From: Psammoneis japonica
Lineage: Eukaryota
DNA length: 64,000 nt
NCBI GenBank assembly: GCA_008632985.1
Contig: QPGO01000139.1
Span: 62,001 to 126,000 of the forward strand
Direction: 5' to 3'
Part shown: positions 26,313 through 64,000 of the stretch, one piece after another
Layout: each line of letters starts with the position of its first letter
Numbering within the stretch: position 1 is the stretch's first letter
Position numbers and translations under genes: made by a program
Notes under the pieces: model-generated
Seen by the model: the letters and a program-made list of their open reading frames with translations, nothing else
Database searches by the model: none
What the model was told of the DNA's origin: nothing

Positions 26313-26454
26313 AAATGTTCTATCCATGATTGTCATCGCTGAAATCCGTTGACGCTGGGGAAGAGCTCTGTTTTGTCTGCGGGTCAAACTACTGGATGGG
26401 ACGGTCACAGCACAAGATTTGAAAATGTTCTATCCATGGTTGTCATCGGCTGAA
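26234..26454 (+). repeat. 110-bp tandem duplication of the SET gene 3' end and stop codon
   Basis: atccgttgacgctggggaagagc...gtcatcg(g)ctgaa at 26234 and 26344. Confidence 0.95.
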
Positions 26455-29400
26455 AAGACCCTAATGGATGGAGGAAGACCGTTGCTCTTGCAGTTACTCT
26501 CGTTGAGGTTCGGATCGCGGTCAGCACCACAGGTGAAGATCACAAAAGAAGGGAAATCCTGCCGGCAGCGCCAACTATACTGTATCCAAGAATCTTTGGT
26601 GGGTGGGTGAGCACAAGGCGTGAATTGTGCAATTTAGAGCAATTGTGAAATCTAGTAGAACAGCGTTGCCACGTTTTCGAATTCCCTCTTGACTCATCAG
26701 CTTCCTCAAACCTTGCCATTTTTGAGCAACACACCACACACCAGAAACGTAAAGCAGAGCATTGCCCTCTCCATGCTAGATTTTACAGATGCATGCGTAG
26801 TCGCGATTTCTGAACTACTCGTATCATTAGATGCCCCGAAGAACAAGTTTTGAACAAAATGAATGTGAGCTACGGCACTTTTTCATGGTGTCTACAAGTT
26901 CAAGCTTGCTTCGGCATCTTGTCAGACAGCGGTCAAGATCACATGAGCTCCTTTCCAGCACCCTGTCCAACTTATTCTGGAAATGTTTCTCATTCTAAAG
27001 CTCCACAGATTTTTCTGGTCAACCACGAACACGTGAGAATTCCAATGGACCCTCATGAAGGTCAGGTGGGCCAATGCTGACAACCCTCAAATGAACTCAA
27101 ACCAACTGCCCATGGGCCAAATGGTTTACAAAATCATGAAGGCGCCCACTGAAGCACAGCTTTGAAAGGATGGCCACTGCCAACCATGGTCTTCAAAGCG
27201 CAGCTGCAAACAGCAAAAGCAAATGGATGTTGCTGAACAGATGGCAGCCAGGACCACAGAGGAAACCAGCAAGAACCCTGGTGGAGCACAACAAAACTGG
27301 TGCAACCACATTGTGCCCATGACAAAACACATCTCATCACACTTGGTTGCAAGAACCAAGAATCCGCCCCCAATGGCCATGGCAGCAATTTGTGCTTGCT
27401 CCATTTTGACTTTGGAGCAGGGTGAAAGACACCACCCAAAGCCAATCTTGGCACCCCACAACACCAATGGACAGGAAATCCCAGAAAACCATGCCAAAAA
27501 GCATGCACAAGAGGCAAAATGGTGCAACAAACATGCTGCCATGAAGTGCTTCAGCAGCCCAGTGTGCACTTTGTTTCTTGCCCTCACTGTCACACATTTT
27601 GTCAATCTTGTTTGCCCTCACACAGCCATGCCACATCCTCTGACAGGGGGGGGGGGGCACAAAGAGCAAATGCTGCCAAGAGCAATGTGACAAGCAGGCA
27701 TTGCCCACAGCTGCTGCATGGCCAAACATGATGAACATCCTGAAGTTGTCACCAAGATTGCAGCAATGCAAAGATTTGCACTGTTTTCAACATGCACCAA
27801 ACGAAGTGACAGGAAGAATTGCTGAGGCTGAAAGACATTTCCGCGCAAATGCTTCCCCATGCCTCATCCTGCTTGCCTTCCTCTTGCAACATCTTTTTCC
27901 ATTTCTGCAGATTTTGACCAAAGCATTTGCAGCAACCCTGCTCATGACCAGCATGCATGTGAAAGAGTTGAGCATGCTGAGAAAAAGTGCACAGCAGCTG
28001 CTGTCAGGGCAACCCAATGAAGCACACATTCTGCCAATCCTTCCAGGGAGCTCATTGTGAACTCTGTCAAGTTGACAGGAAAGTGCTGCAAAGCGCAACC
28101 TTCCTGTTGAAAAACTTCAAAATTGTTGATGTCTGGATGTGGCTGTGGGTGGACTGTTGCAATGTTCCTTTCTGCAGCAACTGCTTGCATGGCATGGTGG
28201 AAGCAAAAATTTGCCCAGCACGTCCCTTTGGCACCGGCAATTTGTTGTGTGTGATGCTGGCAAGGTGAGCATCAAATCCAGCTCTGCAAACTCTTTCAAA
28301 AGCACTGGGACCTTTCTGACATGACAAATTTGAAATGACTGCAGCATGGGGTGGCCCACTTGGCTGACTCTGAAGACAGGGTGGGGCCACAAACACTCTC
28401 AGCTGGCACCCCCAATGTCGCACATTTCAGCTCTCTGCTTCACACCAAGAGTTGGATCTTGTCCAACTTAAAGTGATGCAGACATCATTGCAGCTCAATT
28501 AATTTGTGCAAAACATGCAGATGTGCAGCACTCATCTTCATGCTGCCCTGCCAAATGGTGCACAGGGGGTGCTCTTCTTGACAAAAAGAATGTTTGAAAG
28601 AGCACTGCTTTGCAAGCTTGTCTGTCTGTGGCCCTCAAATTTGGCGCTGATGGTGGCAGAGTGACACAGAGCATCTTTTGCATTTGCAAATGCTTGTAAA
28701 CCTGTGCTGTGTCACAGGTGTGTGGGAATCTTTTGGATCTCAGCACATTGGCAGCAACACAAATTTGCTCATGATCATGACAACCTTGAGGCTTTGTGCC
28801 TGGAAACAGAGCTCCTTCAGAAAACCCAGCCTGCTCCTTTTGAGAACTGCCCCAGTTTGCTTCTTGCTTTGAAGATGACAATTTTTCAGCACAGCAGCTT
28901 CCTGGGTGTTGCTCACTTCATCTGCACACCCTGCTTCTTGCCAAGCTGCACACACATTTTGCAGCTCTCACCCTCTCTGGCCCATGCACTTTTTTCTTTT
29001 TGCCCTGGTTTTGCAAGCACCCAGCCAGCGCTGTTCAGCTTTTGCCTGCACTTTTGCTCAAAGGACCCAGAGATGAAGCAGAAATGATGGAAGACAATGC
29101 AGTGCAGAGTGCCAGTGCAAAAGCTTGCATTGCTTGAAGATGAGACACTCTTGAGCTGTTTGGATGAAACAACACTTTTTTGAGACAATGAAGCTTTGAA
29201 ACAAATCTACATTGAACCATGACAAAGAGCATCATCTGCACAATGACCTGAAAAGCATTGAGGTGTTGTGACAGATGCAATTCATTGCCCATCATCAACA
29301 CATCAACAAACAAACAACCCACATGAGCAAGACAGTTCTGGGTTGTGATGGCAGGCCTCACAGTCTTGTGAATTTTGTCAGCAATGAACACATCATAAAA

Positions 29401-29521
29401 CAGTTTTGCCCAACCACTGACCATCGCATGAGCAGTGTCAACCCATGCGGCACCAGGGGCAAGCGCCACCTCTTGCTTTTTTCACCTCCACCACAAATGC
29501 ACAAGTCTTGACACTTTGACA

Positions 29522-30250
29522 ATGGGCATCAAAGACATGTGGAAGGAGGCGCTTGGAGCATCAATGCGGCACTGTCTGTGCCCTTTGGCATTGCCAAGGA
29601 CAGCATTGTCTGTGTGGCTCACAAAAACTGCCACAGCAAGCGCAATGAAGGCATTGCACAATGTTTGATGTCACAGCCACCGCATCCACCAACTGGGCTG
29701 CTGTTGTCTCTTCAGCCCATGCATCACAAGCTTGTTGCTGATGGCATTGTGCCGCGTTGTGCATTTGATGGATGCCATTGTCCTGTGAAGAGTGTTGCTT
29801 GAGCCGCACACAACAAAAAGACAGTCAAGGCTCAGAATTGGATGTGAGACTTTGTCAGCCGGGCAGGCTCTGCTGAAAAGCCTGGATGGAGCCAGAAGGT
29901 GTCAAGCATGAGTGTGCTCCTTTCAAGGTGGAGCATCACCTTGTGAAATTGGAGGCAGAAGGTTGGATTGACAGAGTTGTGACTGAAGACAGAGATGCAA
30001 CAATTTTGTGCACAAAGGTTGTTTGTTTTAAAGTTGACCTGAGAAATGGAAAGTGGAAAGTGTGCAAAAGGGATGCATTGCCAGATCAATGTCCAATGTC
30101 AAAATGCAAACTTGAAGACTGACCAGCTGTGGCCAATTTGCTTGGATCTGATTGCAACAAAAAAAATCAACAACATTGGATTTTTGTGCATCTTCACCAA
30201 GATTCTTCCTGGCTGAACAGATTTCTTAGGCAAAGCTTTGGACAAGGCCA
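29522..30250 (+). pseudogene. Decayed XPG/EXO1/FEN1-family nuclease
   Basis: MGIKDMWK start, LSVWL, GIVPRCAFDGCHCPVK (VFDG..P.K) and GVKHECAPFKVEHHLVKLEAEGWIDRVVTEDRD (APYEAE..TEDSD). Frameshifted. Confidence 0.72.
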
Positions 30251-30379
30251 TCAGAGAAGCACTTCCCTTGTTTTGGTGGTCTGGAATGCCTGCTGATGCA
30301 CCAGTGGATTCAATCACACGGCATCTCTGTTCAGGCATTGTCCTGTGCTTGATGCCGAAGGAAGTCTGGGGCCACTGAA

Positions 30380-31950
30380 TGCACTGCAACCAACAGAATG
30401 AAGGGTGTGGGGCTCTGTGGTTGGTTCTGGGAAACCAGATCTGGCAGATCTGCTGCCAGCTGCAGCAGCAGTGCCCAGACTGTGGAAGGGCTTGGCAATC
30501 CAATGGTCCAACATTCTTGACAGGCCAACCTTTGCAAGAGTTTTTGACTCCAAAGCACAGCACAGCAGAAAATGATGAGGCAGTGGGACAAGTGCTTCCA
30601 TGGTTTGCACACTTGAATTTTGATTTGATGCCTGTGGAGTGCCTCGTGACTGATGTGCTCAATGTTGGACACCTGCGTGACGTGGATGCCCAGCTGTCAG
30701 TGACTGTGAGGCAGTTGAGGCTGCCACATCTGAACTGAGAGTCCATGATGCACAAGTGTTGGAGCCTGAAAATGTTCCCATTCAGAATTCAGATTGGGCA
30801 ATGGCTGGTTCACAAGGTGCTGGAACTGGCAGATGCATCTGAGGGTTGGGATCGTGATTGTCACTTTGAAAAAGTTGCTGAATTGGAACCCTGCAATGGC
30901 TCAAAGCTGGAACACTTCCATCCAAAGGGTGATGAACACAATCTTGAACGGGGGCTTCCATTGCTCCAAGGCAGGAGTTTGCTTGTGAATGCAATTCAAT
31001 TCAAGCATTTTTGGGCACTTGCAGATGGCACAATCATTTGGTTGTTCAAGCTGCACTGCATTCCTTCCATGAAAACTGAAATCATCTCATCCAACTTGGA
31101 ATCACTGAATCTAAGAAAATTCAAACAGGATGCACCCTCCATGCTGGCTTTGATGGAGAAACTAAGAACACTTGTCATGCTGTGGGTGCTGTGATGGACA
31201 GGGCATGTGCTTGCACACGATTGCAGTGCTGCCAATGTTTTGACAAATTCAAAGGTGTTGCAGCAGAGAGACATTTGAGAGGCAGGGCGATGCCCAAGTT
31301 GCCACTTGACCAATTCCCAATGCCAATTGAATGACTTGCGTTTCAAGAGACAAAAATCATGTCATGGCCCAAGCAGCTTTCTCAGATGGAAACAAAAGAC
31401 AACAATGGCAGCTGCAACGACAACAATGACACCATCAACAATTGCAATGGCAGTGACAGCAATGGCAACAGCAACAATGGCAACAGCCACAATGCAAGTT
31501 TTGAGAAAAAAACCATGCAGCACCACAGCGCCCTTTCTTTCCAAGTGACACCCGCACACTTGGTTGTTGCAGGCACTTCTGGCAACAACCATGCCCACGC
31601 ACTTTGTGACTGCAGAAGATGTTCCAGCAATGATGACACCCATGGACTTCACCACTGCAGGTGTTCCAGCAATGACAATGCCTGTTCTGCACTGCTTGTT
31701 TAAACCTCAGAGACACTGCTCATTTGGTGTCTGCAGAGACAACTGTGCTGCTTGTTTAAACCCCAAACACTCCAGCAGTTGCCAAGGAGACCACTGTCCC
31801 CACCTGGCTTGTGGAGTGGCAAACCAAGGTTCATTTCCACATGGCCCCAATCCAGCATGCAGTGCACAAGGCAAATGTCACAGGAGTGTGGTCACTGCCC
31901 ATCCAATGAAGCAAGTCCCAATGGAACTCCTTCATCATTTCAACATGCAC
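30380..31950 (+). mobile_element. Possible LTR-retrotransposon gag-like remnant with an N/G-rich linker
   Basis: DGTIIWLFKL...LESLNLRKFKQD followed by an NNGS..NGNSNNG low-complexity tract. Resemblance only. Confidence 0.35.
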
Positions 31951-31989
31951 ACTGAACATGCATCAGCGGAGAATCTTGCCATCACGCAG

Positions 31990-33316
31990 TTGATGCAAAT
32001 GCCAAAACAACTTCAGCTCTTGCAGAAACGACTCTGGTGAATTTTGAGAAGACAAATCCAGAGCTTTCAGGCTCACATCTTGCATGCAATTTTTGTCTTC
32101 TTGAAGCATGCTGATTGCTTTGGCACTCCTGGCTTCTCACAGCTTGGCTGTCTGTGCCATCATTTTCACTCAATTGCCAGCTTCATCTCAACAAATTCAT
32201 CAGGCATTTCCTTTTTAAAATGCTCATGAGGCATCAGAAGGATGGACAAGACTTTGCCGCATGTGCCCCACCTTGGTGCCCATTTGTTGACACAGTTCAT
32301 TGCAGTTGCACACGTGACACCAAGCTCCTGAGCAACAACCTTCCACACTGGACAATGATGAACAAAGTGCTTCACCATTGACAGCTGCTCAAACTGACTT
32401 GGGCATTCTGGGAGGTGCACTTGAACATTCCTTCGTTCTTGTCAAGATGGATTTTGGGAAACTCCAAAGGGGTGTCAGAAAAGAAGGATTGAACATGGAG
32501 CTTGAGCTCTTGACATGTGGCAAACCCAAACATGTCCTTGGCTGCATTCGGGTTGCTCTTGTGCTGAGATTCCAAAGTCAGCTGGGCTGTTTTGCTGCAC
32601 TGCCATCAAGAAAATCTGTCATCAGTTGCTTGACATCCACTGACAAATGACTGTGTCCTGTGCAGCAGCAAGTGCTCTCTTCTGCATGGCCGCTGTTGAA
32701 GAGCTGTTGTTCGTCATGCTCAAAGTGCCCACACACGGTGACACATTTTCTTTGTTTGCACTCTCTTGTTCTCTTTCATTGACATGATCACCAAATGAAT
32801 GTCTTTCATGTGATTCCTTGCAATTGTCAAGCTTGGCAAAAGCAGCTTTTTGTTCCCCTTGACAACGCTCCTGCTGCCTTGGTTCGATCACTTCATTTTG
32901 GCTTGAGTTGATTTTCTCTCTTGGGACACCGGGGCAGAGAAAGAGTCAAGGCTTCTTGTTTTTTATGTCAAAGAGAAGCATTTGTTGGGGTTGTGTGGTG
33001 AAATCTTTGCAAGTTCTGATGGTCTCAATGGAGTGGACGCTTCTTGCCCTTGTCGAAGTGACTCATTTGCGATGCCGTCCAATGGTGCCTGGCAATGGGA
33101 GCACACTTCAAATCCCCCATGTGTCCATCGATTCCAAGATTGGTCAGCACAGCCTCTCTTGAAACAAAATGGACTTGTCAGAGTTCCCAGAGAGATCCAG
33201 CCATTTGCATCTGCTGGCACGCGGCTCAGCTTCTCCTGCTTCGACGGCACTCCAGGCCCCAACTGCATGCGCAGCAATGTCATTCTCTTCCCTGTGGATG
33301 GCGGTGTGGATGCCAT
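31990..33316 (-). mobile_element. ISL2EU/PIF-Harbinger-like transposase remnant (THAP-like, HTH, start of DDE)
   Basis: HCCACSWGLEC...IARHHW (THAP-like), VAQELGVTCATAMNCVNKWAPRW (HTH) and NDGTD (first catalytic Asp of DDE_Tnp_4). Confidence 0.55.
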
Positions 33317-33587
33317 TGTCGACTTATGCCACAGATGACTTTACGGGTCCGTCGTCGATTGTGATGGATGCCCCAGAAAATCCATTTTGTTCATCTTTCA
33401 TCTTTCGCGTTGTGGCAGCGATTCGATTTTTAGCAACAGTGGCATCGATGGAGATAAACAAATAAACACTTCATAACCCAAATGACTAACAAGACTCAAA
33501 ATGTTTATCGTACACAGTATTTTTTGTCGATTTTTGCGGGCGGAAGCTGGAACGAAGCAGGAAGCAACCAAAAAAACGCGTTGCAAG

Positions 33588-34349
33588 ATGAAGCCCGCAA
33601 CGCGAGAACATACCGGGCTCAGCCTTGTGGCATACCTTACTTCACAGGTCTTTGCTGTCGTGGTGCTTGTGGTGGTTGCCATGGCAGCGTACGGATTTCG
33701 CGACATCAACGACGCTTTGGCATTTTATGGCGTCTATCATCGTGAACCCATGAATCAGTTCATTCATTTTTTTGGCGTTCCTCTGATTATCTGGACCTTG
33801 TTCATCCTTGCGTCATTCTTGCCCATACCCGTCGTGGATCGTTATTTTCAAATAAAGATACCATTTACACCGACACACTCCGTCACATACGCCACGATCG
33901 CGGCTTTGGGGTATGCTGCATTTTATATAAAGATTGATCCTTTTGGTGGTTTGCTGTACTCTCCCGTGCTCTATGCCATGTATGCTTCGGCTACGACCAT
34001 GGCTGTCAACGATCTAGCAGAGGGAGAACTTAAGCGAGAAAAAGAAAAAAGCTCGAACATTGGTTGGACTGGTACAGGCAAAGTTATGAAAACTGCGCTT
34101 CTTCTTCATGTGTTGGCTTGGTACATTCAGATTCATCCGGGTCATGCTGTGTTTGAGGGTGCCAAGCCAGCGCTCATGGATAGCTTTGGTGGTGCTTTAA
34201 CGTCGGCACCGCTATTTGCGTTTTACGAGGGGCTTTGGTTTTTGGGGATTAACCTTCCACTGCAGGAGCAAACACATGCCCTTGTAGCCAAATACACCGC
34301 AGAGCTGTGTGCTGCTGGTGCAACGATGCGCGTGTGTGCTAGTGTTTAG
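33588..34349 (+). CDS. Mpo1-like / DUF962 ER membrane protein
   Basis: FYGVYHREPMNQFIHFFGVPLI and AWYIQIHPGHAVFEGAKPALMDS...APLFAFYE. Confidence 0.88.
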   Translation: MKPATREHTGLSLVAYLTSQVFAVVVLVVVAMAAYGFRDINDALAFYGVYHREPMNQFIHFFGVPLIIWTLFILASFLPIPVVDRYFQIKIPFTPTHSVTYATIAALGYAAFYIKIDPFGGLLYSPVLYAMYASATTMAVNDLAEGELKREKEKSSNIGWTGTGKVMKTALLLHVLAWYIQIHPGHAVFEGAKPALMDSFGGALTSAPLFAFYEGLWFLGINLPLQEQTHALVAKYTAELCAAGATMRVCASV

Positions 34350-34849: not shown

Positions 34850-35487
34850 TACATTGGGCAGGGCCCTAGGAACTGAGTGCTCGACTAGTCGGATGTGCAA
34901 TGATGTCCAATGACCCAACATTTGTCTTGACTTTTGAAGACAGATGAGACAGGCTAAATCTCAAGTCACAAGCCTGCATCCCAAGGAGAATTGCAAATGG
35001 GATCCATCACAAGGAAAAGGAAAAATTGTTTGCACGAGATCATGGTGGATTGTTGGGTTTTTGCGTTCTGCCTTGGTTTGATGTTTGTCTCCACGCTGGG
35101 CACAGATGCAAAGTTCACACCTTGGCAAAGTGCGGTCAGAGTCTGCACCCCGTGCCAGAGCATCCTTTGATCTGTCCACTCATCACACCCAACGATTTGA
35201 CATCACACTGGGTTGCATCATTTTTCCCAGCTGCTGCTTCCTCAGCACTGATTTGCTTTGTTCCACTGCCAGAGAGAGAGATGGAGAGAGAGAGAGCTCT
35301 GTTGGCAACCAGGTTGCACCCAGTGTGAAGATTTGAGTCAGAAGTCAGGGGCAGAAATGCTCGTGCCAATGCAAAGCTTGGGAGGTTGAGCAAGCTGAGG
35401 ATGCTTGGGGTGCCCATGTCAAGGTCCTCAAGGCAACTGGCAAACAACAAAATGACTGGTCAAGTCAAGAGAGAGATTTGTGTTGCT

Positions 35488-37263
35488 TGACAGGATTTGA
35501 GCAGGATTTGGGTGCGCACGAAATGTCACGTGCTGTTTAGTTTGCCGCGCACAGTTTTGTGTGCTCTTCAGTTCCGCGCGCATGCGCGATGCAGTTTGCT
35601 TTGAGCCACACGGCTCACAAGAACAACAACAGTGGCCCGATCACACCGACTTGCACGTCTTTTGGCTCCTGTGACGGTCTCTGAGCAGAGACTCATCTGC
35701 CATTTAGACAGCAGCAAGGAGTCATTGTTTGAGTTCTTGCCATTTGCCTTCAATTTCTGTCAGATTGCCTGAAGTCTAGTGCCTCGAGACTGGGCCTCCT
35801 GGCTGGATGCCCCAAGTCTCGTACCTTGAGACCAAGCCTCCTGACTGGATGCCCCAAGTCTCATGCCTTGAGACTGGGCCTCCTGGTTGGATGCCCCAAG
35901 TCTCACACCTCGAGACCAGCCCCCCTGGCTGGATGCCCCAAGTCTCGTACCTCGAGACCAGGCCTCCTGATTGGATGCCCCAAGTCTCGCACCTTGAGAC
36001 TGGGCCTCCTGGTTGGATGCCCCAAGTCTTGCACCTTGAGACCAGGCCTCCTGGTTGGATCCCTCAAGTCTTGCGCCACAAGACTCGGCCTCCGGATTGG
36101 ATCCCTCAAGTCTTGCACCACGAGACTCGGCCTCCCAATTGGATCCTTCAAGTCTCATGCCTCGAGAGACCAGGTCTCCTGATTGGATGTCCCAAGTCTC
36201 GTGCCCCGATGCTGGGCCTCCTGATCGGATGCCTCAAGTCTCCTGCATCGAGACTGGGCCTCCAGATTGGATCCTCCACATCTCATGCCTCAAGACTCGG
36301 CCTCCGGATTGGATCCCTCAAGTCTTGCGCCACGAGACTCGGCCTCCGGATGGGATCCCTCAAGTCTTGCACCATGAGATGTCTTGCTCCAATCCAATCC
36401 CCAAAGGCTTGCACCTTGAGACTCGTTCCTCCAATTGGATCAGTCTCTCAGGAGATGCAGCTGAGCTTGCAATCGGATTGGTGGAACACAAGACCACCGC
36501 TTGTGCCTTTGAACTCATGCTTGCTCTGTTCCCCGAGTCGTGCAAACGCCATGCCACCCTGCTCGAGCACTGCTCTGTTTTTCCAGCAGCAGCCCAGTGT
36601 GGCAACCGTTCCAAGAACCAACAGACGGCTGTCAGTCTTTGCGACCTTCACTCAGGGAGTGAAGGTGATGTCAACTTGTTTGCATTGTCCTGCAATGTTG
36701 CCCCGCTGTTCAACATTGTCAACCAGACCAAGCTTTGCTCCCTCCATTGCAAGTGTGGATGTGGAGTCCCACAAGATCCCAAGTGTGCCTTGAGCTTTGA
36801 AAAGCACAACGGCATCTGCAATTGGGGAGACACAGCTCATCTCAAGATGACCCACTTGGAGAATGCAACGTTGCTCCAAGATCTTGATCCTTTCTTGTCT
36901 CCTCGTGTTTTGGTGCTTTGACTCCAAAGTTCTTTAGTCAATCCGAAGTTGAATCTGTTTCTGTGACTCTTCAAGCAAACTGGGGAGTGACAGGATTTGA
37001 ACAGGATTTGGGTGCGCGCGAAATGTCGCGTGCTGTTTAGTTTGCCGCGCACAGTTTTGTGTGCTCTTCAGTTCGGCGTGCACGCGCGATGCAGTTTGCT
37101 TTCGAGCCACACGGCTCACAAGAACAATGACAGCAGCCCGATTGTGCCGACTCACACGTCTTTCGGCTCCTGCAACGGTCTCTGAGCAGAGACTCATCTG
37201 CCATTTAGACAGCAGCAAGGAGTTGTTGTTTGAATTCTTGCCATTTGCCTTCAATTTCTGTCA
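35488..37263 (+). mobile_element. Internally deleted copia-derived LTR element, 1776 bp, LTRs 35488-35762 and 36988-37263, 5-bp TSD TTGCT
   Basis: LTRs read TGACAG...CTGTCA. TTGCT lies at 35483-35487 and 37264-37268. PPT-like ggggag precedes the 3' LTR. Internal HCKCGCGVPQDPKCALSFEKHNGICNW resembles the CoDi pre-RT YKYGYEVPR...ALxxDxxNG..W motif. Confidence 0.92.
35786..36447 (+). repeat. 42-bp minisatellite, about 16 units, inside the LTR element
   Basis: Unit gagactgggcctcctggYtggatgccccaagtctYRYRcctt, translating as MPQVS[YCHR]LETxPPxW. Confidence 0.95.
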
Positions 37264-38916
37264 TTGCTTCTTGCAGACTCAGTGTAAAAAGTGCCAAGTT
37301 GATGGTGCTGCAAGTGCTCAGAGCTTGGCATCTGATGACAGGCTTTTCAGAGCACTCGAGCTGGGTGTGAGAAAGAATGCCAGCAACAGAGGCCACAGAG
37401 GCAAAAAGAAGAGGCAACTGCTCAGTGAAACAATGCTGCAAAATGCTCAGAATTAAGAGCACAAAACTTGCTTCATGACAAATGGCACAGGTGCTCTGCA
37501 CTCCTTGCCACTTCCATGCAGACTGCCTTGCCCAGATGAGGGCCTCAAGAGTGAGTTGAAGGCTCAATCCTGTCATGACTGGCGCAGACTGGGAAAGCCT
37601 CAGAGATGCATTTTTGGACACTGTGCCCACCAGTGATGAGCTGCAAGAGCTTCTGACCAACCCATCCCAAGGTCCTGCACTGTTGGGCTAGACTGCTGAC
37701 TTTGTGCATGGCCGCTGCATTTGCATGAACACAAACTTTGTGTTGACTCATCCAAAGTCTTGCTCCTGTCAGTCTTCAACATGATGGGATGCAAGCCCTT
37801 CAAAAACCTGAGAGTGGAAGCAGCCTGCTCTCAAGCTTTTGGGCACTCTGCAAGAGAACACTGCGCTGGTTGCAACGGAACCTTTGGTGCTTCCATCTTT
37901 GACTGACCTGCTTTTGTTGCATTTGGCAAGTGCCGTGAACAAGTGACTTGCGCCACTTTCTGAGGTGCCTCTGCCACATGACATGCACTCCCAGCAACTG
38001 CTCAACTGTGTTGATGGCACATTGCTTGCACCCCTGCTGCCACCCCTTCCATGGCTGCCAGCTGACCCCAGCACCCACCGCAGCCATGACTGGAGACCCT
38101 CTGCCACTGTGCCAATGCTGGCCCTGACCAGGGCCTCTGATTCAACCACTCCATTGGCCCCACCCTGCCTGAACCTCACCCCCCCAAGAATGCATGCCTC
38201 CTTCTGCTTTTCTTTGTGTGCAAATCTAAGCTGGCTGCATTGCTCCAGGCACTGCACTCAGATGCCCCAATGCAGGCATGAACAGGAGCTCCAAAATGTG
38301 CGCACCAGTCTCACGTTGGTGTCATCTTTCCCTTCTGCTTCATGTGGCTTTGAGTTGCTTGTCAATTTCCAGGTTGGCGCAGTTCTCAAACTCCAACATG
38401 TTTTTCACAATCTCGCTGTGTCAAATTGTCACATCCAATGCATTGCTTGCACTCCAACATTGTTTTTCTTGCCCTTGCCTTTTTGCATGCACAAATCATA
38501 ATTTCGTGTCCTCACCCATCCTTTGATTTGTGCTTCAATGGGTCGTTGCTCCAGGCACTTCACCAAACTTTGTGGAGCACTTCATTGAACTTTCAGTCAA
38601 CTGCCCATTTCCAAATTGGCACAGCTCTCTCCTGCAAAATGTTTTTTGTTTGCTGTGAGAATCACACTGCATCAAATCATTGCATCGGTGCAAACGTGCT
38701 GCACCAAAGTTGATTTTTTCATTGACACAAAACTGATGCAGGATCGAGAGCCCTGACTGGCACCTCCTGTTCGGCAAGACTGGGCGCAAAGCAAATTTAA
38801 TTGGGTTCGATGAAACCCTCGCACGGAAGGACGGGTTGGACATCACCAGCACTGTCACTGCTGTCGACTTGCCTGACGGCGTGGTGGTTCTACTGTGCAT
38901 GCACGAGAGTCCAACG

Positions 38917-39113: not shown

Positions 39114-41885
39114 TCATTTTTTTCCGTCTTCGGGTAGATATGACCATGTTCCCGAAAAGACCAGGCGACCCTGATGCACACCCATGGAACCCTCGACAAC
39201 AACTTCTCCGTCGTCCCTGCCACGAGACTCCGCATTCTCCGCCTTGTCACTTTGAAGGCTGGGCATTTTTTCCGTGACCAACTTAGAAGAACATGATTCT
39301 TCAGCCGGGTCAACAGCAGAAAACGGAAAACGCACGGTATCGAGGCTCGTCTCAATGATATGTTCGGTAGGACGCTCTAAGAAAGAAGCATCCTTTTCCA
39401 ACAGATACACCCCAATGTAGCTAACAGAACCAAGTGACATGAACGCCAAAGAGAACCAAAGCAACGTGTCTTCTCCATCGTCCATCCCCATGAACGCCCC
39501 AGCAATAAAAGCATTCACCGAGTCAATGAGGTTGCCAAGGATGGCGTATATTCCGTATCCGAGACCTGCACGAGCTGGGCCTACGATGAAAGGAATAGTG
39601 ACAACGCCAAGGTCACAGTAGCTAGTTGTGACGGCAAATAGGCATGTTGCGACCCACACAACAGCAGAATTCTCTGTTGACAGTAGGAATCCGTATGCCA
39701 ACAAACTCATAAACACGGCAAGAAAGCTAAGTCTCGCACGGGCACCGGTTTTGTCACTGAGGATGCCCATCACAGGACTCACTAACGAACCGCAGGAGGA
39801 AGAATCGGAAGCGTCAACCAAAATTATCCGATTTTTGCAAGAGTCATTCCGACGATTGTGCAACGAAAGCAAAAGCACTTACATGGGCCAGCAATGAGTG
39901 AGGTTAGTCCGGTGGCCAGTGAAGCTTGAGACTGAGAAAGACCGTATTTTTTGGCATACAAGTCCACGGAGTAAAGTGAGAACGTGTTGAAGTAGTAATT
40001 TACCCCCTTGATTCCAAGAATTGTGAGATAAAAGGAAGCCGGGAGTTTGAACGAAGCTAGTCCCGTCGGAGCTTTAGGAATTGCAGCCTTCGCAAAGCCT
40101 GCAAAAGTTCTTTCGAGAACAGCTTCGTCAGAGTCGTCCGTGCTATCGTTTTTCTTCCTCTCCTCCATGAAAAGCCCCGCAGCAACAGCGTAAGTAGCAG
40201 CAGTTGAAATAATACAAAACATAAAGCACATAAAGAGAGCAAAATCAGTTCCCGTGTTGTCGAGAGGTGTCTCGCTTCGACTATCTGCAATGACAGGTAG
40301 GAACTGGAAAGCAGCAAAGGCCTCAACTGCGATTAGAAGTCCCATAATTCCAATCATCAGCCCGATCTGCTTCGGAAATACAAGGCTGTAACATTCGCTG
40401 GTAGCAAAGAACAGGGTTTCCAGCCCAAATCCAATGAGGAATCTTGCAAAGACAAGAAGTCCATACAGATCTGGGGTATCTGCATACCACTGCAGGAGAG
40501 CCCCTATCGACATCTGCGGGACGTGCAGCGGTACAACAGAGGCAAGCAGTACAAAACATGAGCCATACAAAGGTCAAACCGCGGGACCATTGGCTAGATC
40601 GAGCAATAACACGCTCACGACTGAACTTACTATTGTACTGGCGCCAGCGCCTACGGGAGCAGGTCCTGTAACATTATCCATAAAGTAGCCACCGATGAAT
40701 GGACTGATCATTCCGGCAGCAAAATAGGCAGTGTTCAATACCCCAATCTCTGCCTCGTTAATGTCCATCCTTGCCATGAATCTTTCAGTCATGGCAGCCA
40801 CGGCAAAAAGAGCGAACAGCCCACCAAATGTGAACGTGGAGATGGCACAGAAGTAGAATGTACCACGGCAGGTCGGAAGGCACCTCGTTCCATTGGATTC
40901 CTCCCCATCTTCGCCCTTCTTGACAACGACAGCCCGCACAAACGCTTCCCTATCAAGTGTTCCGTTAAGCCGACGCTGTTCGCCGACCCAATCTGTGATG
41001 CGGGAAACGGTTGATTCTGGAAGATCTGGTGTTGACGACAGGTCAGCCCCCTTTATAGTTTTAAGCTCTTGGGCCATTCCTCTGTCCATCAGACTTGTAT
41101 TTCCTGTCTTGACGGGCGTAATATGAGACGTGTGCTTGACTTTCATAACATTTCGTTGGGACATGAGATCGGCGTAACCTAAACAAACATCCTCAGCCGA
41201 AAGGTCACCGTCCTGTCTCGAATAGGGAAAAGAATGGTTACAATATGCGATAACCAATCAAACAACTGAAATGAAAGGGGTCTGAATTCACTTACCTGAT
41301 CTACATCGTAGAGCGAGAAGAACATGTTGGCAACGTCTTCCGGCGTTCCCCTCAAAAGTGGGGAAATGCCCTGCACCAATTCAAACCTTGTGATTTCTCC
41401 TGAATTGTCATCGTCGAAAAACGTCCAAAGGCGCCTCACCAGCCCCTCGTGCTTCAAACCAGCGCTCCCACACAACGTGGCAAACTCCTCATAGTCAATC
41501 ATACCATCGTCGTTCACGTCGTTGACATCCTCGCGGTTGTAGAAATCAATGATTTCGCGTTTGGAAAAGTTGGTAGTTTCGAGGAGGGTTGCAAGTTCAT
41601 CCTCCGGGACATTGCTGATTCTCCGCCCTTTCTTCTTCTTTTTCTTATCATTGTCACTCGTTTTCCTACGTCAAGTCGAGTAGAAAGGGAAAATAATGAG
41701 AAGCCGAGGACAAACGCAGTGTGCACTGAGTAGTTAGCTATCGATGCAACAAATTTGTGAGTGGCATCTTGAACTGATCTCCCACCGACCAGCCATCACA
41801 ATAGGACTTACTCTACATATCCTTCTTCCAAGTCCGGGATAGTGGAGCTTTTGCCCTCGTTCTGTTTCGAGACATCGGCGTTCAT
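39114..41885 (-). CDS. EF-hand (NCS/calcineurin-B-like) domain fused to an MFS (MFSD1-like) transporter, about 5 exons
   Basis: ELATLLETTNFSKREI, EF loops DVNDDGMIDYEEF, DDDNSGEITRFE and YDVDQ|DGDLSAED. Then MFS helices (SPFIGGYFMD, ARFLIGFGLE, PVMGILSDKTG). GT-AG introns at about 41811-41668, 41295-41213, 40630-40514 and 39882-39782. Confidence 0.82.
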
Positions 41886-42255: not shown

Positions 42256-44520
42256 GACGACGATGAACAGCGCTGCAGCGACGCTCGGGCCCTTCGACTT
42301 CATCAGCCGCATTGGTTTGGGTGACATCGAGCCTGAAGAAGTCAAGAAGGCCACAGATGGGAGAAAGTTCACACCATCCCAAGAAAGAGACAACTTCTCA
42401 AAACGGCAGCTGACAACCAAGCAGCAATTCTGGCGGATCTTCGCACTCGCTTTGGGTTGAAAGCGGGTGAAGTTGATCAACGCATTGCTCAATTTGAAGA
42501 AACGATAAAGGGAATGCCCAAGCTCTCGAGTGGCAACTTCAGTGGATCCGTGTGCAGCGAGTGCTGCTTCAATTTTGCCGCTCTGCTCAAAAACATGCTC
42601 GGCACCTCATCCGACAAGCCGTGGACCAGAGAGTCGTGCAAGAAGTGTTTGGATCCACTTGTGTGTGCTCACAAGGAAGCAAAAGAACCAGCACTGGAGA
42701 AAAAGCATGACTGCCTCAACTCCTGCATTGTGAAGCTCAGCAAGGAACAGCAGAGTCGCGGCCATGGCGCAGATGCCATGGACCCGCCAGATGGGGACAA
42801 GACTTGTGTTTCATGCGGTCATGACTCACTTGATTTCCCATGCTCAAGCATGGCAAATCATGAGGCAAATGCAAAGAAATGACAAGAATGTGAGGCAGCA
42901 TTGTCAGAACACAACCACGACCCAGTGGCGTGGCGAGCCGCAAACAACAAACAGAAGCCTGCCGAACCCAAGCACACAGCTGCACATGCACAATGCCACT
43001 GTCACCAAATGCACTGCATGGGCCACATGCAAGGCACGTGCAATGCATGCAAACAAGATCCACCCAGACCACAGGACGATGGTGTGTGCCCTTGTGCGGC
43101 ATGCCTTTGTGAATGCAAGGCAGCAACCCAGGTGAGTCGTGTTGTCGAGCTCATCCTGTTTGCATGTGATCAACGTCATGTTGCGTGACTGCTTGCATGT
43201 CGTTTCTGTCTTTGCACTGCATCTTCACAGTTTGACAAGAAGCAGCAACTTGTGCACATTGCATTGAGAAATGCGCAGAGTGCGAACCGTCTTGACACAA
43301 GGGAGGAGCTCCTCAAGCAAGCTGTTGCCGATTCTTGCATCTTCGGAGCGCTCAACACAGGATTTGCGAATGGCAGCAGGGCAGCTGCTGAAGTTGCAGC
43401 CCAGGCATGTCCGCATGCTGATGCCGTCGCAATTTGTTCACAACAGATGAGCATGGGGCACTGTCTGCGGCAAAGGCATGCGCCGGGTTGTTGCCATCAT
43501 TTGCAAATCAGGCCGAGGGTGAGGAGATGAGGCAGCTTCGTTCTCTCTTTGACAAACCAACTGCCAAGGCAATTGGGCCCGCGGGTGACCTTGTTGATGC
43601 TTGAGGAACTCATGCAACAAAGGGACATCGAAGTGGGGACAATTGCATCAAGGACAGTGCAGGTCCTTCCCGGGGAGGACTCGGTTCAACTCATGTGAAG
43701 ACCAGTCCACCGGTGCCGGCACAAGGTGGCAACATTTCTTCACGTCACGACGTGCCAGTGGATGTTGCACCTCCATTTGGCCACCTGATTGGGCCCTCAG
43801 CTGTGGCCACAACACCAGCCACAGGGTTGGCAACCAGCAACCAGGGCTTTGCTCCACCGCCTGTGAGCCCCAATGAATGCCTCCATCTTCTCCAGCACAA
43901 TCCTGCTGAACTTCATGCCCAGATTGAGGCACTCAGAAAATGCGAGCATTGCCAACCCAGCTTTCAATCCCCGCCTTTTCATGCCGCAGGTTCCTTGCAA
44001 CAAATTGTGAATGACCCATCTGCACTGCAGGAGCAGGTCCATGCATGTCAGCATCATTCACAGCAGGCCAGCCAGAAACCAGCAGCTGTCAACAAGGAAA
44101 CGATGGCGCAAGAAGCAATCAATGTTGATGAGGGCAAAGATGAAGGGAACACACTCTCTCTAAAGATGGGCAAGCACTTGCATTTGCCAGCAGTTTTGTT
44201 GGTTGGTGCGTGGCTCACACAGTTTTGCACTCATGCAATCACTCAGAGGCAAATGACACACCTTCCAAGGGAAAACGCGCTCGAGCCACAATCAGGCTCC
44301 ACGATGCAAGCTTTGGGATCCGAGCCCTCGATGGTGCGACAGCCGATGAAGCTTTTGACTCGTATGAGTGTTCCACCCCCCATCCCACGGAAGTCAGCAA
44401 CCACCTCCAAGCAGTCAATCGCTCAAGGAAAAGGAACTGGGAATTCAACGAATTCGACTGCGAGGCCAAAAGGCCTGGATCGTCCGACACCATGGGGTCA
44501 GAAGCGGCAGCCAATGTGGT
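42256..44520 (+). pseudogene. Second (cargo) ORF of the Tc1-like element, Cys-cluster protein, disrupted, with one apparent intron (about 43132-43230)
   Basis: Continuous reading frame with in-frame TGA stops: CVSCGH...CHCHQMHC...CNAC...CPCAACLCEC. Donor cag|gtgagt and acceptor cttcacag. Confidence 0.6.
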
Positions 44521-44849
44521 GATTAGTCTAAATCGCCACCAGAAGAAGAGGTCTTCTCAGCTGTTGTGGATCGTCCAAGAAGACTGTTGTAGATGGCCAG
44601 ATGGGCCAGCTCAAAGCAGAAAAGAGGGAACACAGCAGTGGACAGAAACACCGTAGATGTGATTTGCAACTTCCAGAATGCAGCAAACAAGAGACACCTT
44701 AGAAATGAATTGCAACTTCTAGAATGCAGCAGACAAGAGATGCCGCACCTTAGAGTCGAATGGAAACTGTCACACATCACATGAGTGCGGCACTTGTGAG
44801 GCATGCTGAGATGAAGAATGGCAGTGGCTGACAAATTATGTTCTAGCAT

Positions 44850-45900
44850 CTGTCAATTTTTTTGTCTAAAACCGACCTCATAAAAACATGGGCGGCAAGG
44901 ACCAAGCGTTCTGACAACAGAACGCGACTCTCACACAAGATCTTCGTCGTTGAAGATCTTGTGCGAGCGGTCCTTGAGGGCCCCTTCGAATGTGTTGAAC
45001 ACGAGTTCAATGGGGCCGTCCACCGGGCAGCAGGGGGTGCGGAACACCACCCGGTGGCCCGCCATGAGAATTGATCGGACAACTGGGGGGTGGTGGTGCA
45101 CCACCAAGTTGTCCATCATGAAGCATCGTCGCCTGTGACCAGGTGCCCAAGGGCCAATGTCTGCTAGAATCCCGTCAACAAAACTCCTGAATGGTGTCAC
45201 ATCAGCTCCAGCTTGCTCCACAAATTTGCGCCAATGATGACCACATGGAGACATCGGCCTTCAAAAGAATTCTGCCTCTTCCATGACCATGCACTCCAGT
45301 TTTGCGGCATCGGCACTCCAGTGATGTCTTGGCACGTGATCGGTTCGAGAACTCAGCAAGAATTTTTGCTTCGTCTGCATCAATCACATCTTCAAGCTCA
45401 GTGTCAGCAATTCCAAAGGGATGCACCACACACCAAAACACTGCTCACTGTAAACACAATGTGGCTCACAGGCTTGGTGCACAGTTGTTGACGATTTCTT
45501 CCGTGAAAACCCAGTTCGCTGCTCCACCTTCGCAATCTGGCCCTCGTTGCACCAAATTCCAGCGGCTTGATGCAACATTGCAATCTTTTCCAACCCAGTT
45601 GCATCAGGGAAGCACATTGCACAAAGGGCCAATGGGACAAGCTCCGGTCCTTGCAACACATGAGCTCTGATGTTGCCGGCATGCCGATGCTCACAGCAAG
45701 CATTTTCGATCCGCGCACGGTTCCGCCATCGACTGAGGGTCCATGTGACTGGATGCAGCTTCAGTCTGCACTGCTCTCTCACTAAAAAATCTTCATTTCC
45801 AGTCACACAACATTGCAAACAAATCAGTCTCAAATCCCTCGAGTGTGCAGGAATTGGCTTTCTCACAATTGTGCCGCGACGGTGCACGGTCTTTGTGGGG
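44850..45900 (-). pseudogene. DD34E transposase, disrupted
   Basis: IDADEAKI, then MMDNL-x34-PIE (FRTPCCPVDGPIELVFN). N-terminal HTH-like TLSRW and GFSRKKSST. Confidence 0.9.
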
Positions 45901-46911
45901 GGGGGGGGGGTTCTGGCATTTTTCTGCACTTTTCCATTCACCATCTTTGCAGTGGCATTCCACATCATCATGTGCATCAATGCAACATGCAATGTCATCA
46001 TCAAAGTGTTTGCTGCACTCCATCTGACGTCCGATGGTTGGTCATGATGTTTTTTGCCGTGTGAAACCACGTGGCGCATCGGATTCTTGAAATGTTTCAC
46101 AATTTTTCAGAGAGGTCTCCCAATTAAAAAAATCGACAGACAAGTGATCTGAAAAATGTGGTGATCATCGCATCGTACAGCACAGTGCTGCACTGCATGT
46201 ACAGTGCATGCTGCATCAGCCAGCCCGCCAGGCCAGGCAGACACAGAAATGCAGCAGTGCCGCCACCGGCATTCACAGGTCCGCGAAGAATCAAACAGTT
46301 GCTCAATCATGCTGTGCTTACGAAGAGACCAAACAAAAAGAGGCAGACTAGAAAGGTGGCGTTCAAGGTGCGCAAATGGTGTGATGATGTGCCACATCTT
46401 CATGGCCAATGGCCATCGCCTCGGTGCCGGTCGGCACACATTGAAATTTGCTCAAGCGTGAGATGGGGGGTGCTTTGGGTCTTTTTTCGTTTTGTTTTTC
46501 CATTTTTTCATCCCCAACACTTTTAAAGATTCTTCTCATGTAAGAAAGGAAGGAGGACACACTTAGACTAAAGGACATGGTGCATGCATCTGTTTGTTGC
46601 GATGCGATGCGATGCGATGCATTTCTGGGAAGCAGAAGAGAAAATTCGGAATTTTTATGAATTTCGCAAAAATCTGTGTTTTGACAAAAATGGTGTGTAT
46701 GTTTTGGCGGGAAACAATGTTAATATTAGTTATTGAATACGGTATATAATAAGACAACTGGAGGAACAACGACACAGGATACAAAAGGCTTTAACGATGT
46801 GATGTGATTGATGATAGGCCTTTCTTCTCCTCTGGAACGATGTATTCAAAGCAAATCCGCAGCCGTACATCATTTGTGAGTAGCTTTGGCGATATGAAAA
46901 CAAGCGACGGC

Positions 46912-61000: not shown

Positions 61001-61139
61001 GGGGGGGGGGGGGGGGGGGTCACATCAAAACCTGATGCAAAAAACTTGGGTTGCATGGACATGACTCCACCAACCCACCTGTGGGGAATGGAAACCAGTT
61101 TGGCACTCTGCAGATCATCACACCAACTTCCTTTTCCAA

Positions 61140-63559: not shown

Positions 63560-64000
63560 TCGGGCTTCGACAAGTGGATCTTGATGGACAGCATGAAACT
63601 GTGTGTTCACGTGACATGAGAATGACAGGCGGGACAGATTTTGGCTCGGTGCTTCATTTTGCAATGCTTGGACAGCAAAGACAAGATTTTCCAATCGTGA
63701 GATGACATGTGGTCATGTGTTTGCATGCCGTTGATGTGGTGGCAAAGTCAAATGGTCCATGAAGGAATGCATCTTGGTGATGAACACACACCCATTGGGA
63801 GAAGACAATGAGTCATTTGTCACATGCATGGCCAATTTCATTTGGGGAAGGTTTGAGCAGATGAAAGTCATTGTGAAGGACAAATCGTCCATTGAGCTCA
63901 CATGACATTCTTTCCAATGTCACTGATTTGGGGCATTGAATTGCACATCATGAGGGTGCCGTGCAAAAAAGTTGGTGCAGATCTTGCCACCAGAGAAGAC
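63560..64000 (-). mobile_element. Possible copia-like pol 3' remnant, truncated by the window end
   Basis: Hypermutated composition. AFLHGPFDFA resembles a motif I recall from diatom copia-like polyproteins (unverified). Confidence 0.35.

Follow-up and report, generated by a model that had tools for sequence, protein, structure and literature searches.

Long terminal repeats of a short retrotransposon in the diatom Psammoneis japonica point to regional TpA loss that outpaces CpG decay

Introduction

Fungal RIP consists of C to T changes, mostly at CpA; it creates TpA and lowers GC content. A change that acts on TpA itself is described for Bigelowiella natans in the main text of a recent preprint, which reports de novo TpA to TpG/CpA mutations in integrated viral DNA at about 6e-7 per site per generation and describes the hypermutation of integrated giant-virus and virophage DNA as TpA specific (Mettrop et al., bioRxiv 10.64898/2026.01.13.699255). 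The words "CpG," "context," "flank," and "diatom" are absent from that main text. A literature search covering listings and the opening parts of abstracts found no diatom report of a TpA-loss signature, and this 2026 preprint is the only published precedent that we found.

Here, we describe a stretch of DNA from the diatom Psammoneis japonica in which a short long terminal repeat (LTR) element lies within DNA that is almost free of TA. The reading that we favor, at a probability of roughly three in four, is that a short element of an abundant family inserted at this site and has since been subject, in place, to a fast regional process that erases TA and to a slow decay of CG. At this locus we observed how the substitutions are distributed, the division into blocks, the flank rule, the ratio of the two rates, and the bias in dating.

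Materials and Methods

The window, by which we mean the whole stretch of DNA that was analyzed, comprises 64,000 nt of P. japonica (assembly GCA_008632985.1, contig QPGO01000139.1, positions 62,001 to 126,000, forward strand). All coordinates below are window positions. The two LTRs were aligned globally (35488 to 35762, 275 nt, versus 36988 to 37263, 276 nt). Family letters are per-position letter shares among Logan contigs from one sample, possibly the source of the window's own assembly. At the sites where the LTRs are discordant, the letters were taken among the rows listed; position 37224 has no row, and at three sites the partner letter is not listed. Bins that lacked depth in runs X2 to X4 were set aside, as were rows beyond those listed.

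No outgroup copy of the element was found within the window, since all 19 alignments from a blastn search with the element (word size 7, E of 1e-3) lay inside the element itself. Degenerate patterns built from the most conserved stretches of the LTR were scanned twice against metagenome contigs and gave 0 matches each time. The 42-bp tandem array inside the element was considered as an internal outgroup and rejected for two reasons: one unit column held TA twice, TG six times, CA five times, and CG twice (15 units), and the divergence of the units may predate the insertion.

Results

The window is bimodal in composition, and eight sharply bounded TA-depleted blocks account for 32.5 kb of its 64 kb. 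Depleted blocks had observed/expected (o/e) ratios of 0.03 to 0.09 for TA, 0.09 to 0.61 for CG, and about 1.5 to 2.0 for CA and TG, whereas the normal blocks, which carry host genes, had ratios of 0.50 to 0.65 for TA and 0.85 to 0.96 for CG; one normal block of 547 bp was lower (TA, 0.31; CG, 0.66). The pyrimidine-purine sum was 0.2391 in depleted versus 0.2394 in normal DNA, and the mass balance was nearly exact, with a combined loss of TA and CG of 0.0747 versus a gain of CA and TG of 0.0745. Where TA alone is gone, the GC content is raised to 0.51 to 0.54. A Pfam scan of 71 stop-to-stop open reading frames (46 plus 25) from depleted blocks found no transposon domain above the cut-off; it gave a DDE_3 match below the cut-off (E of 0.0015; 44931 to 45260, minus strand) and one EMP70 fragment. 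The loss of TA removes TAA and TAG stops and thereby leaves long spurious reading frames that gene finders are liable to call. As a control for whether duplication by itself sets off the process, a tandem duplicate of 105 nt (26234 to 26448) was taken from a normal block; its three differences, one of them TA/TG, are too few to serve.

The element lies in one of the depleted blocks, between an Mpo1-like reading frame on the plus strand (33501 to 34349) and MFS-like reading frames on the minus strand (39114 to 41257). Individual TA positions place the edges of the block at about 34956 and about 38797. Its features are as follows.

35001 to 38817, no strand: depleted block containing the element, by composition; TA o/e 0.06, CG o/e 0.39
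35483 to 35487, plus strand: left target-site duplication, TTGCT, identical to 37264 to 37268
35488 to 35762, plus strand: 5' LTR by alignment, 275 nt, TG...CA, with 2 TA (both TTTAG) and 15 CG
35763 to 36987, plus strand: internal region, by composition and Pfam scan; TA o/e 0.06, CG o/e 0.41
35772 to 36367, plus strand: 42-bp tandem array, 14.1 copies, 80% matches, with a degenerate extension to about 36435
36941 to 36987, plus strand: terminal 47 bp of the internal region, common to the high-copy family by a jump in depth and including a polypurine-tract-like run
36988 to 37263, plus strand: 3' LTR by alignment and a depth drop at its end, 276 nt, with 2 TA (both TTTAG) and 19 CG
37264 to 37268, plus strand: right target-site duplication, TTGCT, read in the sequence

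The element spans 1,776 bp (1.78 kb; 35488 to 37263), and its LTRs are 92% identical and in direct orientation. Both begin with TG (35488 and 36988) and end with CA (35761 to 35762 and 37262 to 37263), and the 5-bp target-site duplication is within the 4 to 6 bp expected for an LTR retrotransposon. A short purine-rich run (36977 to 36987), polypurine-tract-like by sequence, adjoins the 3' LTR on its upstream side. The summed contig depth was 2e5 to 7e5 over the LTR versus 58 in the unique flank, with a drop from 5.2e5 to 64 immediately past 37263. Depth in the internal region was 40 to 180 times that of the unique flank, and the LTR exceeded the internal region about 50- to 100-fold. Toward the 3' LTR, contig depth rose from about 1e4 to 5.7e4 in the bin 36926 to 36963, with loose ends at 36941; after the 5' LTR, only the first 4 bases match the majority continuation of the family, as read from contig loose ends. 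Neither of the two long internal reading frames (35807 to 36793 and 36055 to 36921) matched a Pfam family at an E of ≤0.01, and a search for tRNA genes as partners of a primer-binding site found 0 in the window. The element is a real nonautonomous, TRIM-like LTR retrotransposon from a family of thousands of copies. The reading frames without a Pfam family and the great excess of LTR depth over interior depth would fit reliance on an autonomous element that carries this LTR.

The LTR alignment contained 22 substitution columns and a single-base indel (column 116). The first-pass annotation, which rested on a manual alignment, had counted about seven sites where CA faces TG between the LTRs, about five where CG faces TG or CA, and about three other substitutions, and these counts proved exact in the global alignment. 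Its statement that many CGs but only two TAs survive was likewise borne out (15 or 19 CG and 2 TA per LTR, both in TTTAG). The CA/TG sites begin at columns 141, 147, 156, 158, 166, 186, and 237 and read as follows.

35627 to 35724, the seven sites in the 5' LTR: 35627 CA, 35633 TG, 35642 CA, 35644 CA, 35652 TG, 35672 TG, 35723 CA
37128 to 37225, the seven sites in the 3' LTR: 37128 TG, 37134 CA, 37143 TG, 37145 TG, 37153 CA, 37173 CA, 37224 TG

The CG versus TG/CA sites are at columns 30, 40, 92, 96, and 177. States common to both LTRs were CG at 13 sites, TA at 2, CA at 23, and TG at 21. Pyrimidine-purine dinucleotides held 19 of the 22 substitution columns but only 142 of the 275 columns overall (binomial P = 7e-4), and there were 8 adjacent mismatch pairs versus 1.7 expected, a number reached in 11 of 200,000 random placements; this lies far outside chance expectation. 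The three other substitutions are G/A at column 14, C/G at column 88, and G/A at column 247. Two of these three are G/A differences in an identical TTTGA(G/A) context, for which our preferred explanation does not account.

A CA/TG pair is the expected outcome of two hits on opposite strands of CG as well as of TA, and methyl-CpG decay could on its own be proposed as the source of all 12 pyrimidine-purine differences, with a family that was natively poor in TA. CG decay is real here, given the five single-hit sites and the CG ratios of 0.09 to 0.61 in depleted blocks, and diatom transposons are described as CG methylated (PMC9998398). However, a single CG-decay rate across the 13 intact, 5 single-hit, and 7 discordant sites was rejected (G = 13.9, P = 1.9e-4), and the single-hit rate of 5 in 36 copy-sites predicts 0.17 discordant double hits versus the 7 seen (Poisson P = 8e-10). 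Five intact CGs and one single-hit CG of the LTR's 3' half interleave with the seven discordant sites, some of them 3 bp apart, a pattern with a P of 1.3e-12 under the local CG rate. Under CG decay alone, the probability of a hit per copy would have to be near 0.85 at 7 sites and 0.14 at the other 18, even though the two sets interleave at 3 bp, and the TA ratios of 0.03 to 0.09 alongside CG ratios of 0.4 to 0.6 and the raised GC content would be left unexplained. We consider this reading very unlikely.

The family letters agree with TA ancestry. At 37145/6, C made up 14% and A 32%, which places TA in at least 18% of the depth. At 37173/4, T made up 26% and G 21.5%, which places TA in at least 5%, and the loose-end consensus from eight records reads TA there. 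The values at 37128/9 (C, 30%; A, 32%) gave a TA-ward excess of 2 points only. At 37134, 37144, and 37153, the TA-ward letter stood alone among those listed (26%, 15%, and 77%). Thus, the three discordant sites with both letters listed all had a net TA-ward excess and none had a CG-ward one, in contrast to control sites at which this copy reads TG or CA (36756, 36831, 37031, 37081, and 37187), where the CG-ward letter stood alone at 53 to 100%. The seven sites most likely were TA, not CG, and each LTR probably held at least nine TAs at insertion. The proposal that the CA/TG pairs arose by independent hits on opposite strands of an ancestral TA or CG therefore resolves in favor of TA, as judged by the model test, the interleaved intact CGs, and the family letters. 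Other copies had been suggested as the check, and their per-position shares, among the rows listed, lean toward TA and never toward CG; a natively TA-poor family in which every such site had been CG, the outcome that would have overturned the proposal, was not what we found.

All seven sites sit in a 98-bp stretch of the LTR's 3' half, and in the 5' half, the sites at which family letters point to a former TA are concordant. Along the LTR, the two kinds of TA-derived site, concordant and discordant, show partial segregation (runs test, P = 0.076). Such clustering could accommodate a conversion tract or mutation before insertion. By gene conversion or ectopic recombination, columns from about 141 to 238 of one LTR could have been replaced from another family copy, so that the differences would not be postinsertion, and family polymorphism (14 to 77%) is indeed seen at each of the six discordant sites for which letters are listed. 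On the other hand, both LTRs carry an A at 37188, between sites 37173 and 37224, that makes up only 3% of family depth, as well as a minority C at 37112 (12%), and a random donor would therefore seldom fit. Imported CA or TG would still be derived from TA, so the mutation process stands and only its timing changes. We regard conversion as unlikely, and mutation in place after insertion remains our preferred reading.

A TA-only model with one rate (two intact, zero single-hit, and seven discordant sites) did not fit either (P = 6e-4), and a flank rule is therefore needed to exempt the two TTTAG sites. Such a rule is seen across the window. TTAA or TTAG/CTAA accounted for 47 of 81 surviving TAs in depleted DNA versus 151 of 1,215 in normal DNA (odds ratio, 9.7; P = 3e-20). 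Normalized for context, TA survival was 0.54 for T_TA_A and 0.21 for C_TA_A and 0.00 to 0.06 for the other eight classes, and CG survival was flat across contexts (0.17 to 0.39). None of the seven discordant sites has a TTAR/YTAA flank, and both surviving LTR TAs do. The rule, by which TTAA and TTAG are spared and ATAT, ATAG, and ATAC are erased, provides a fingerprint for testing candidate deaminases.

Depletion extends beyond the element, to block flanks of 487 and 1,554 bp with TA ratios of 0 and 0.06, and the CG ratio in these flanks is 0.21 to 0.24 versus 0.56 in the element. The flanks bear on the idea that no chromosomal mutation took place and that the differences came from editing of RNA or cDNA during reverse transcription or from assembly or polishing. 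Deaminases that act on cDNA mutate retroelements, and thousands of LTR copies invite mispolishing. Editing of cDNA cannot, however, yield TA-free flanks that are not repeats; an independent contig matches the unique right flank (37237 to 37600) with 0 other letters; and mispolishing toward the commonest allele should bring the two LTRs closer together, not drive them apart. An origin by editing or artifact is extremely unlikely, and we keep to chromosomal mutation.

The LTR pair records both processes on the same DNA and over the same time span and so gives a direct rate ratio. All 14 TA copy-sites were hit, versus 5 of 36 CG copy-sites; these counts put the speed of TA loss in the element at no less than 11 times that of CpG decay. 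TA sites took at least 1.65 hits each, compared with 0.011 substitutions per base in each copy at columns that are not pyrimidine-purine, which places the TA rate at least about 70-fold per base above that background, a lower bound because the TA sites are saturated. The Jukes-Cantor (JC) distance was 0.085 over all columns and 0.023 over non-pyrimidine-purine columns, a ratio of 3.7. The first-pass annotation had expected TA erosion at least as fast as CpG decay and badly inflated LTR dates; the first holds with a margin of at least 11-fold (14/14 versus 5/36), and the naive divergence is 3.7-fold too high (JC, 0.085 versus 0.023). LTR divergence is the standard clock for dating retrotransposon insertions; for this element, it would saturate at a value set by TA content, not by age, and transposon chronology in the P. 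japonica genome needs TA and CG sites to be masked.

Discussion

In the sequence of events that we favor, the element would have entered intergenic DNA already stripped of TA and CG, and two transition processes would have acted on the chromosomal copy after insertion. The fast one would change A:T to G:C at 5'-TA-3' on either strand, giving TG or CA, and would have reached every TA in both LTRs except for the two in TTTAG, a context that it would largely spare. With the LTRs hit independently, about half of the former TA sites should read CA in one and TG in the other, which would produce the seven discordant sites. The slow one would be ordinary CG to TG/CA decay (5 of 36 copy-sites), presumably by deamination of methylated cytosine. 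The fast process would be regional, filling bounded intergenic blocks and leaving genes alone.

By analogy with the proposal for B. natans, we infer an enzymatic origin for the fast process, the simplest candidate being the conversion of adenine to hypoxanthine by deamination within silenced chromatin. Tentatively, and at somewhat less than even odds, diatoms may possess a chromatin-targeted, flank-reading DNA-editing defense that deaminates the adenine of TpA on both strands, mirrors fungal RIP, and is common, by descent or convergence, with B. natans. If so, that defense clears the TA of a new transposon while only about 14% of its CpGs decay, and it would represent a widespread genome immunity system of the stramenopile-alveolate-rhizarian group. 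Should the process prove enzymatic and targeted, a type of defense known from a single 2026 preprint would gain a second, ecologically dominant algal lineage, and its targets would widen from viral inserts to transposons.

Among known systems, the element itself resembles TRIMs in its short length, LTRs with TG...CA ends, 5-bp target-site duplication, and lack of coding capacity, and in LTR and polypurine-tract-proximal sequence that is common to a more abundant family. Unlike them, it has an interior dominated by a 42-bp tandem array, and both its LTRs and its internal region run somewhat above the size range of classic TRIMs. Methyl-CpG decay is similar in that CG becomes TG or CA on either strand and in its confinement to transposon and intergenic blocks; the CG deficit and the TG/CA excess are both present, methylation is presumed, and such decay would explain 5 of the 22 LTR differences. 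However, it cannot account for the loss of TA, the raised GC content, or the seven CA/TG sites. Fungal RIP in ascomycetes likewise wrecks repeated or mobile DNA in bounded regions through dinucleotide-specific transitions and skews its composition, but here TpA is destroyed, and GC content is raised (0.51 to 0.54) where TA alone is lost.

The closest system is that of B. natans, as described in the main text of the preprint. Both involve TpA to TpG or CpA changes, A:T to G:C on either strand, although at our locus the ancestry is inferred: 14 of the 22 LTR substitutions form the seven CA/TG pairs, with TA ancestry drawn from statistics and family letters. Both are regional, fall on nonhost or silent DNA, and far exceed the background rate, and both leave low TpA with high CpA plus TpG in clustered windows as a long-term footprint. 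The changes here are not limited to TpA, in that depleted blocks also lose CG and five LTR differences lie at CG; this CpG decay in the same blocks and the flank rule that spares TTAA and TTAG set our locus apart. The depletion also is far deeper here, with TA o/e ratios of 0.03 to 0.09 compared with a Rho of 0.45 in the NCLDV region. Finally, the preprint reports de novo mutations in viral insertions of a rhizarian, whereas our evidence comes from the standing sequence of an LTR retrotransposon and intergenic blocks in a diatom.

LTR alignment and ancestral state of the CA/TG sites

The two LTRs belong to a small retrotransposon with the following parts (window positions).

34956 to 38797 (both approximate): the element's own depleted block, with the 3' end of a gene on either side (a convergent pair)
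35483-35487 and 37264-37268: 5-bp target duplication TTGCT, flanking the element on both sides
35488-37263: the element, 1,776 bp, bounded by direct repeats
35488-35762: 5' LTR, 275 nt, with TG start and CA end
35772-36367: 42-bp tandem array in the interior, 14.1 copies, 80% matches
36988-37263: 3' LTR, 276 nt, with TG start and CA end

A formal alignment reproduced exactly the differences counted in the first-pass annotation: seven sites that pair CA with TG (discordant sites), five that pair CG with TG or CA, and, as the remainder, three substitutions (two G/A and one C/G) plus one 1-bp indel. States common to both LTRs were CG at 13 sites, CA at 23, TG at 21, and TA at 2; thus, many CGs survive and only two TAs are left per LTR, both in TTTAG, as had been described. 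Pyrimidine-purine dinucleotides occupied 142 of the 275 columns and held 19 of the 22 substitution columns (P = 7 × 10^-4). There were 8 adjacent mismatch pairs compared with 1.7 expected; of 200,000 random placements, 11 had at least as many. Of the three differences that fall elsewhere than in these dinucleotides, two, at LTR columns 14 and 247 (35501/37001 and 35733/37234), have G in the 5' LTR and A in the 3' LTR, both in TTTGA[G/A], and neither a TA nor a CG process accounts for them.

The CA/TG sites had been proposed to reflect opposite-strand hits on TA or CG, and three lines of evidence, from statistics, position, and family copies, point to TA. If all had been CG, the classes would be 13 intact, 5 single-hit, and 7 double-hit sites on opposite strands, which one rate fails to fit (G = 13.9, P = 1.9 × 10^-4); the CG single-hit rate of 5/36 copy-sites predicts 0.17 discordant doubles (P = 8 × 10^-10). 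Regional heterogeneity does not save the CG model, since five intact CGs and one single-hit CG in the 3' half of the LTR are interspersed with the seven discordant sites, some of them 3 bp apart.

For the family copies, we used the letter shares per position in four runs, all of one sample that is possibly the source of the window assembly; the letters listed cover six of the seven discordant sites. At 37145/6 (TG here), the family has C at 14% and A at 32%, so TA is present in at least 18% of family depth. The shares are T 26% and G 21.5% at 37173/4 (CA here), where the consensus of eight loose-end records has TA, and C 30% and A 32% at 37128/9. At 37134, 37144, and 37153, the only letter listed is the one leading to TA (26%, 15%, and 77%), and no discordant site covered leans toward CG among the letters listed. 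The method is able to reveal CG, because five control sites with TG or CA here (36756, 36831, 37031, 37081, and 37187) gave only the letter leading to CG, at 53 to 100%, among the letters listed. The comparison with other copies that the annotation had proposed therefore comes out on the TA side, and CpG decay alone, which statistics, interspersion, and family letters all disfavor, is a very improbable source of the CA/TG sites. Each LTR had at least nine TAs at insertion, by hand calculation an observed/expected (o/e) ratio of roughly at least 0.45. This is close to the genic level, so that the family was not natively TA-poor, the counter-case that had been raised.

The packing of the seven discordant sites into 98 bp, with a weak runs test (P = 0.076), could suggest that one LTR imported a tract from another family copy. 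However, both LTRs carry A at 37188, a 3% family allele lying between discordant sites, and import, which we consider unlikely, would even if real alter only the timing and not the nature of the mutations.

Rates and LTR dating

With the two TTTAG sites excluded, 14 of 14 TA copy-sites derived from the discordant sites were hit (95% lower bound of 0.81 per copy, equivalent to 1.65 or more hits per site) versus 5 of 36 CG copy-sites, which corresponds to 0.15 per site. TA was thus lost at least 11 times faster than CG, which strengthens the earlier claim that its loss is at least as fast. In columns outside pyrimidine-purine dinucleotides, the rate of change was 0.011 per base per copy. The naive divergence was 22/275, or 8.0% (Jukes-Cantor [JC], 0.085), against 3/133, or 2.3% (JC, 0.023), over the 133 non-pyrimidine-purine columns; LTR dating is thus inflated, as the annotation had held, and by a factor of 3.7.

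Element and family

Besides the array, the interior has about 500 bp of unique sequence. A Pfam search matched no family in its two long ORFs, and blastn found no second copy in the whole window. Contigs of one public sample, aligned over 36470-37600, had a summed depth of 2 × 10^5 to 7 × 10^5 over the LTR compared with 58 in the unique right flank, falling from 5.2 × 10^5 to 64 exactly past 37263, and of 2.5 × 10^3 to 1 × 10^4 in the internal region. High-copy homology started about 47 bp 5' of the 3' LTR and took in the purine-rich run 36977-36987. From the LTRs, the target duplication, the interior without Pfam match, and this depth profile, the element is a short nonautonomous LTR retrotransposon, whose LTR and the sequence next to its putative polypurine tract are common to a family that numbers roughly in the thousands; summed depth is only an approximate guide to copy number. 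In contig loose ends, other copies mostly diverge from the element interior past the LTR end (37263/37264; 35763 onward here), with only the first four bases in common, so the putative primer-binding region is unlike that of the main family.

Block structure and flank preference

The composition of the window was sharply bimodal. Eight depleted blocks, totaling 32.5 kb, had TA o/e of 0.03 to 0.09, CG o/e of 0.09 to 0.61, and CA and TG o/e of about 1.5 to 2.0. Normal blocks had TA at 0.50 to 0.65 and CG at 0.85 to 0.96, except one 547-bp block (0.31 and 0.66), and hold typical eukaryotic genes (CobW, mitochondrial carrier, DHHC, Mpo1-like, SBF, and MFS). For the CobW protein, the nearest atlas clusters are most frequent in Bacillariophyta, consistent with a diatom-like host. 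Pyrimidine-purine dinucleotide frequency was 0.2391 and 0.2394 in the two classes, and the TA+CG deficit (0.0747) equaled the CA+TG surplus (0.0745), as expected from transitions at TA and CG. TA loss was common to all depleted blocks, while CG loss varied; GC content was 0.51 to 0.54 where only TA was lost, 0.48 to 0.50 where both were lost, and 0.46 to 0.48 where neither was.

Within the element's block, the nonelement flanks had TA o/e of 0 and 0.06 and CG o/e of 0.24 and 0.21. The element had TA at 0.09 and CG at 0.56 over its whole length, with CG at 0.84 and 1.04 in its two LTRs. As the flanks are poor in both and the element still bears CG, we conclude that a CG-rich, TA-bearing element inserted into previously mutated DNA and then lost TA first. 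cDNA editing or a polishing artifact could create differences between LTRs but leaves the TA-free nonrepeat flanks unaccounted for, one of which was matched by an independent contig with 0 differences; we find this explanation hardly credible.

Among 81 TAs surviving in depleted blocks with edges trimmed by 150 bp, 25 were in TTAA and 22 in TTAG/CTAA. The corresponding counts among the 1,215 TAs of normal blocks were 50 and 101 (odds ratio for both contexts, 9.7; P = 3 × 10^-20). Normalized to the number of pyrimidine-purine sites per flank pair, TA survival was 0.54 in T_TA_A, 0.21 in C_TA_A, and 0.00 to 0.06 in the other eight classes; CG survival was flat across flanks (0.17 to 0.39). This rule explains why exactly two TTTAG sites were kept per LTR, and also the misfit of a TA model with one rate (P = 6 × 10^-4); none of the seven discordant sites has a TTAR/YTAA flank.

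Other features of the window were as follows. Long ORFs (at least 300 amino acids) occur in several frames of depleted blocks (e.g., 18332-19330, 35807-36793, and 43605-44522), none with a Pfam family; they are probably spurious, since TA loss strips TAA and TAG stops, and could be called by gene finders. At 27126-27617 (minus strand), close to the left end of block 27044-33305 and inside it, where both TA and CG are depleted, a 163-amino-acid stop-to-stop ORF matches the C terminus of Pfam EMP70 (profile 364-501 of 517; E = 1.4 × 10^-16). The minus strand upstream of it yielded no more of EMP70, and the ORF looks like a hypermutated host-gene fragment. A weak DDE_3 transposase-like match at 44931-45260 (minus strand; E = 0.0015; 18.9 bits, under the 28.6-bit cutoff), located where the intermediate block of 547 bp (44441-44987) gives way to block 44988-46391, which is depleted of TA but retains CG, may be a DNA transposon remnant. 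Depleted block 56820-64000 contains, at 61176-62537, a complex array whose 62-bp units form higher-order repeats (families D2 to D5). In a normal block, a 105-nt tandem duplicate (26234-26448; 97% identical) has kept its TAs, three in one copy and two in the other; the three differences between the copies include one of TA versus TG.

Mechanism and comparison with known systems

Transitions at TA and CG have struck both strands, independently in each LTR. They lie in bounded blocks, and a preference for certain flanks holds for TA but not for CG. We infer that the TA process is enzymatic and edits A to G in the chromosomal DNA of silenced regions, for which adenine deamination to hypoxanthine would be the simplest chemistry. 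For CG, decay of methylated cytosine would be the simplest reading; CG methylation of diatom transposons runs via DNMT5a, and DNMT4, a relative of the fungal RIP enzyme, is present in some diatoms (PMC9998398).

Our full-text literature searches, judged from listings and the openings of abstracts, found no diatom report of a TA-loss signature, and the sole precedent found is a preprint on Bigelowiella natans (bioRxiv 10.64898/2026.01.13.699255), in which Mettrop et al. also propose adenine-to-hypoxanthine deamination. Two viral inserts there accumulated 231 de novo mutations, almost exclusively TpA to TpG/CpA, at about 6 × 10^-7 per site per generation, and an ADAT2-like candidate was named. 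In the main text of the preprint, a term search for CpG, flanking context, and diatoms returned nothing. The present case adds TA and CG hits adjacent in one LTR pair, which give a rate ratio, an ancestral state checked against family copies, and a mass balance of pyrimidine-purine dinucleotides.
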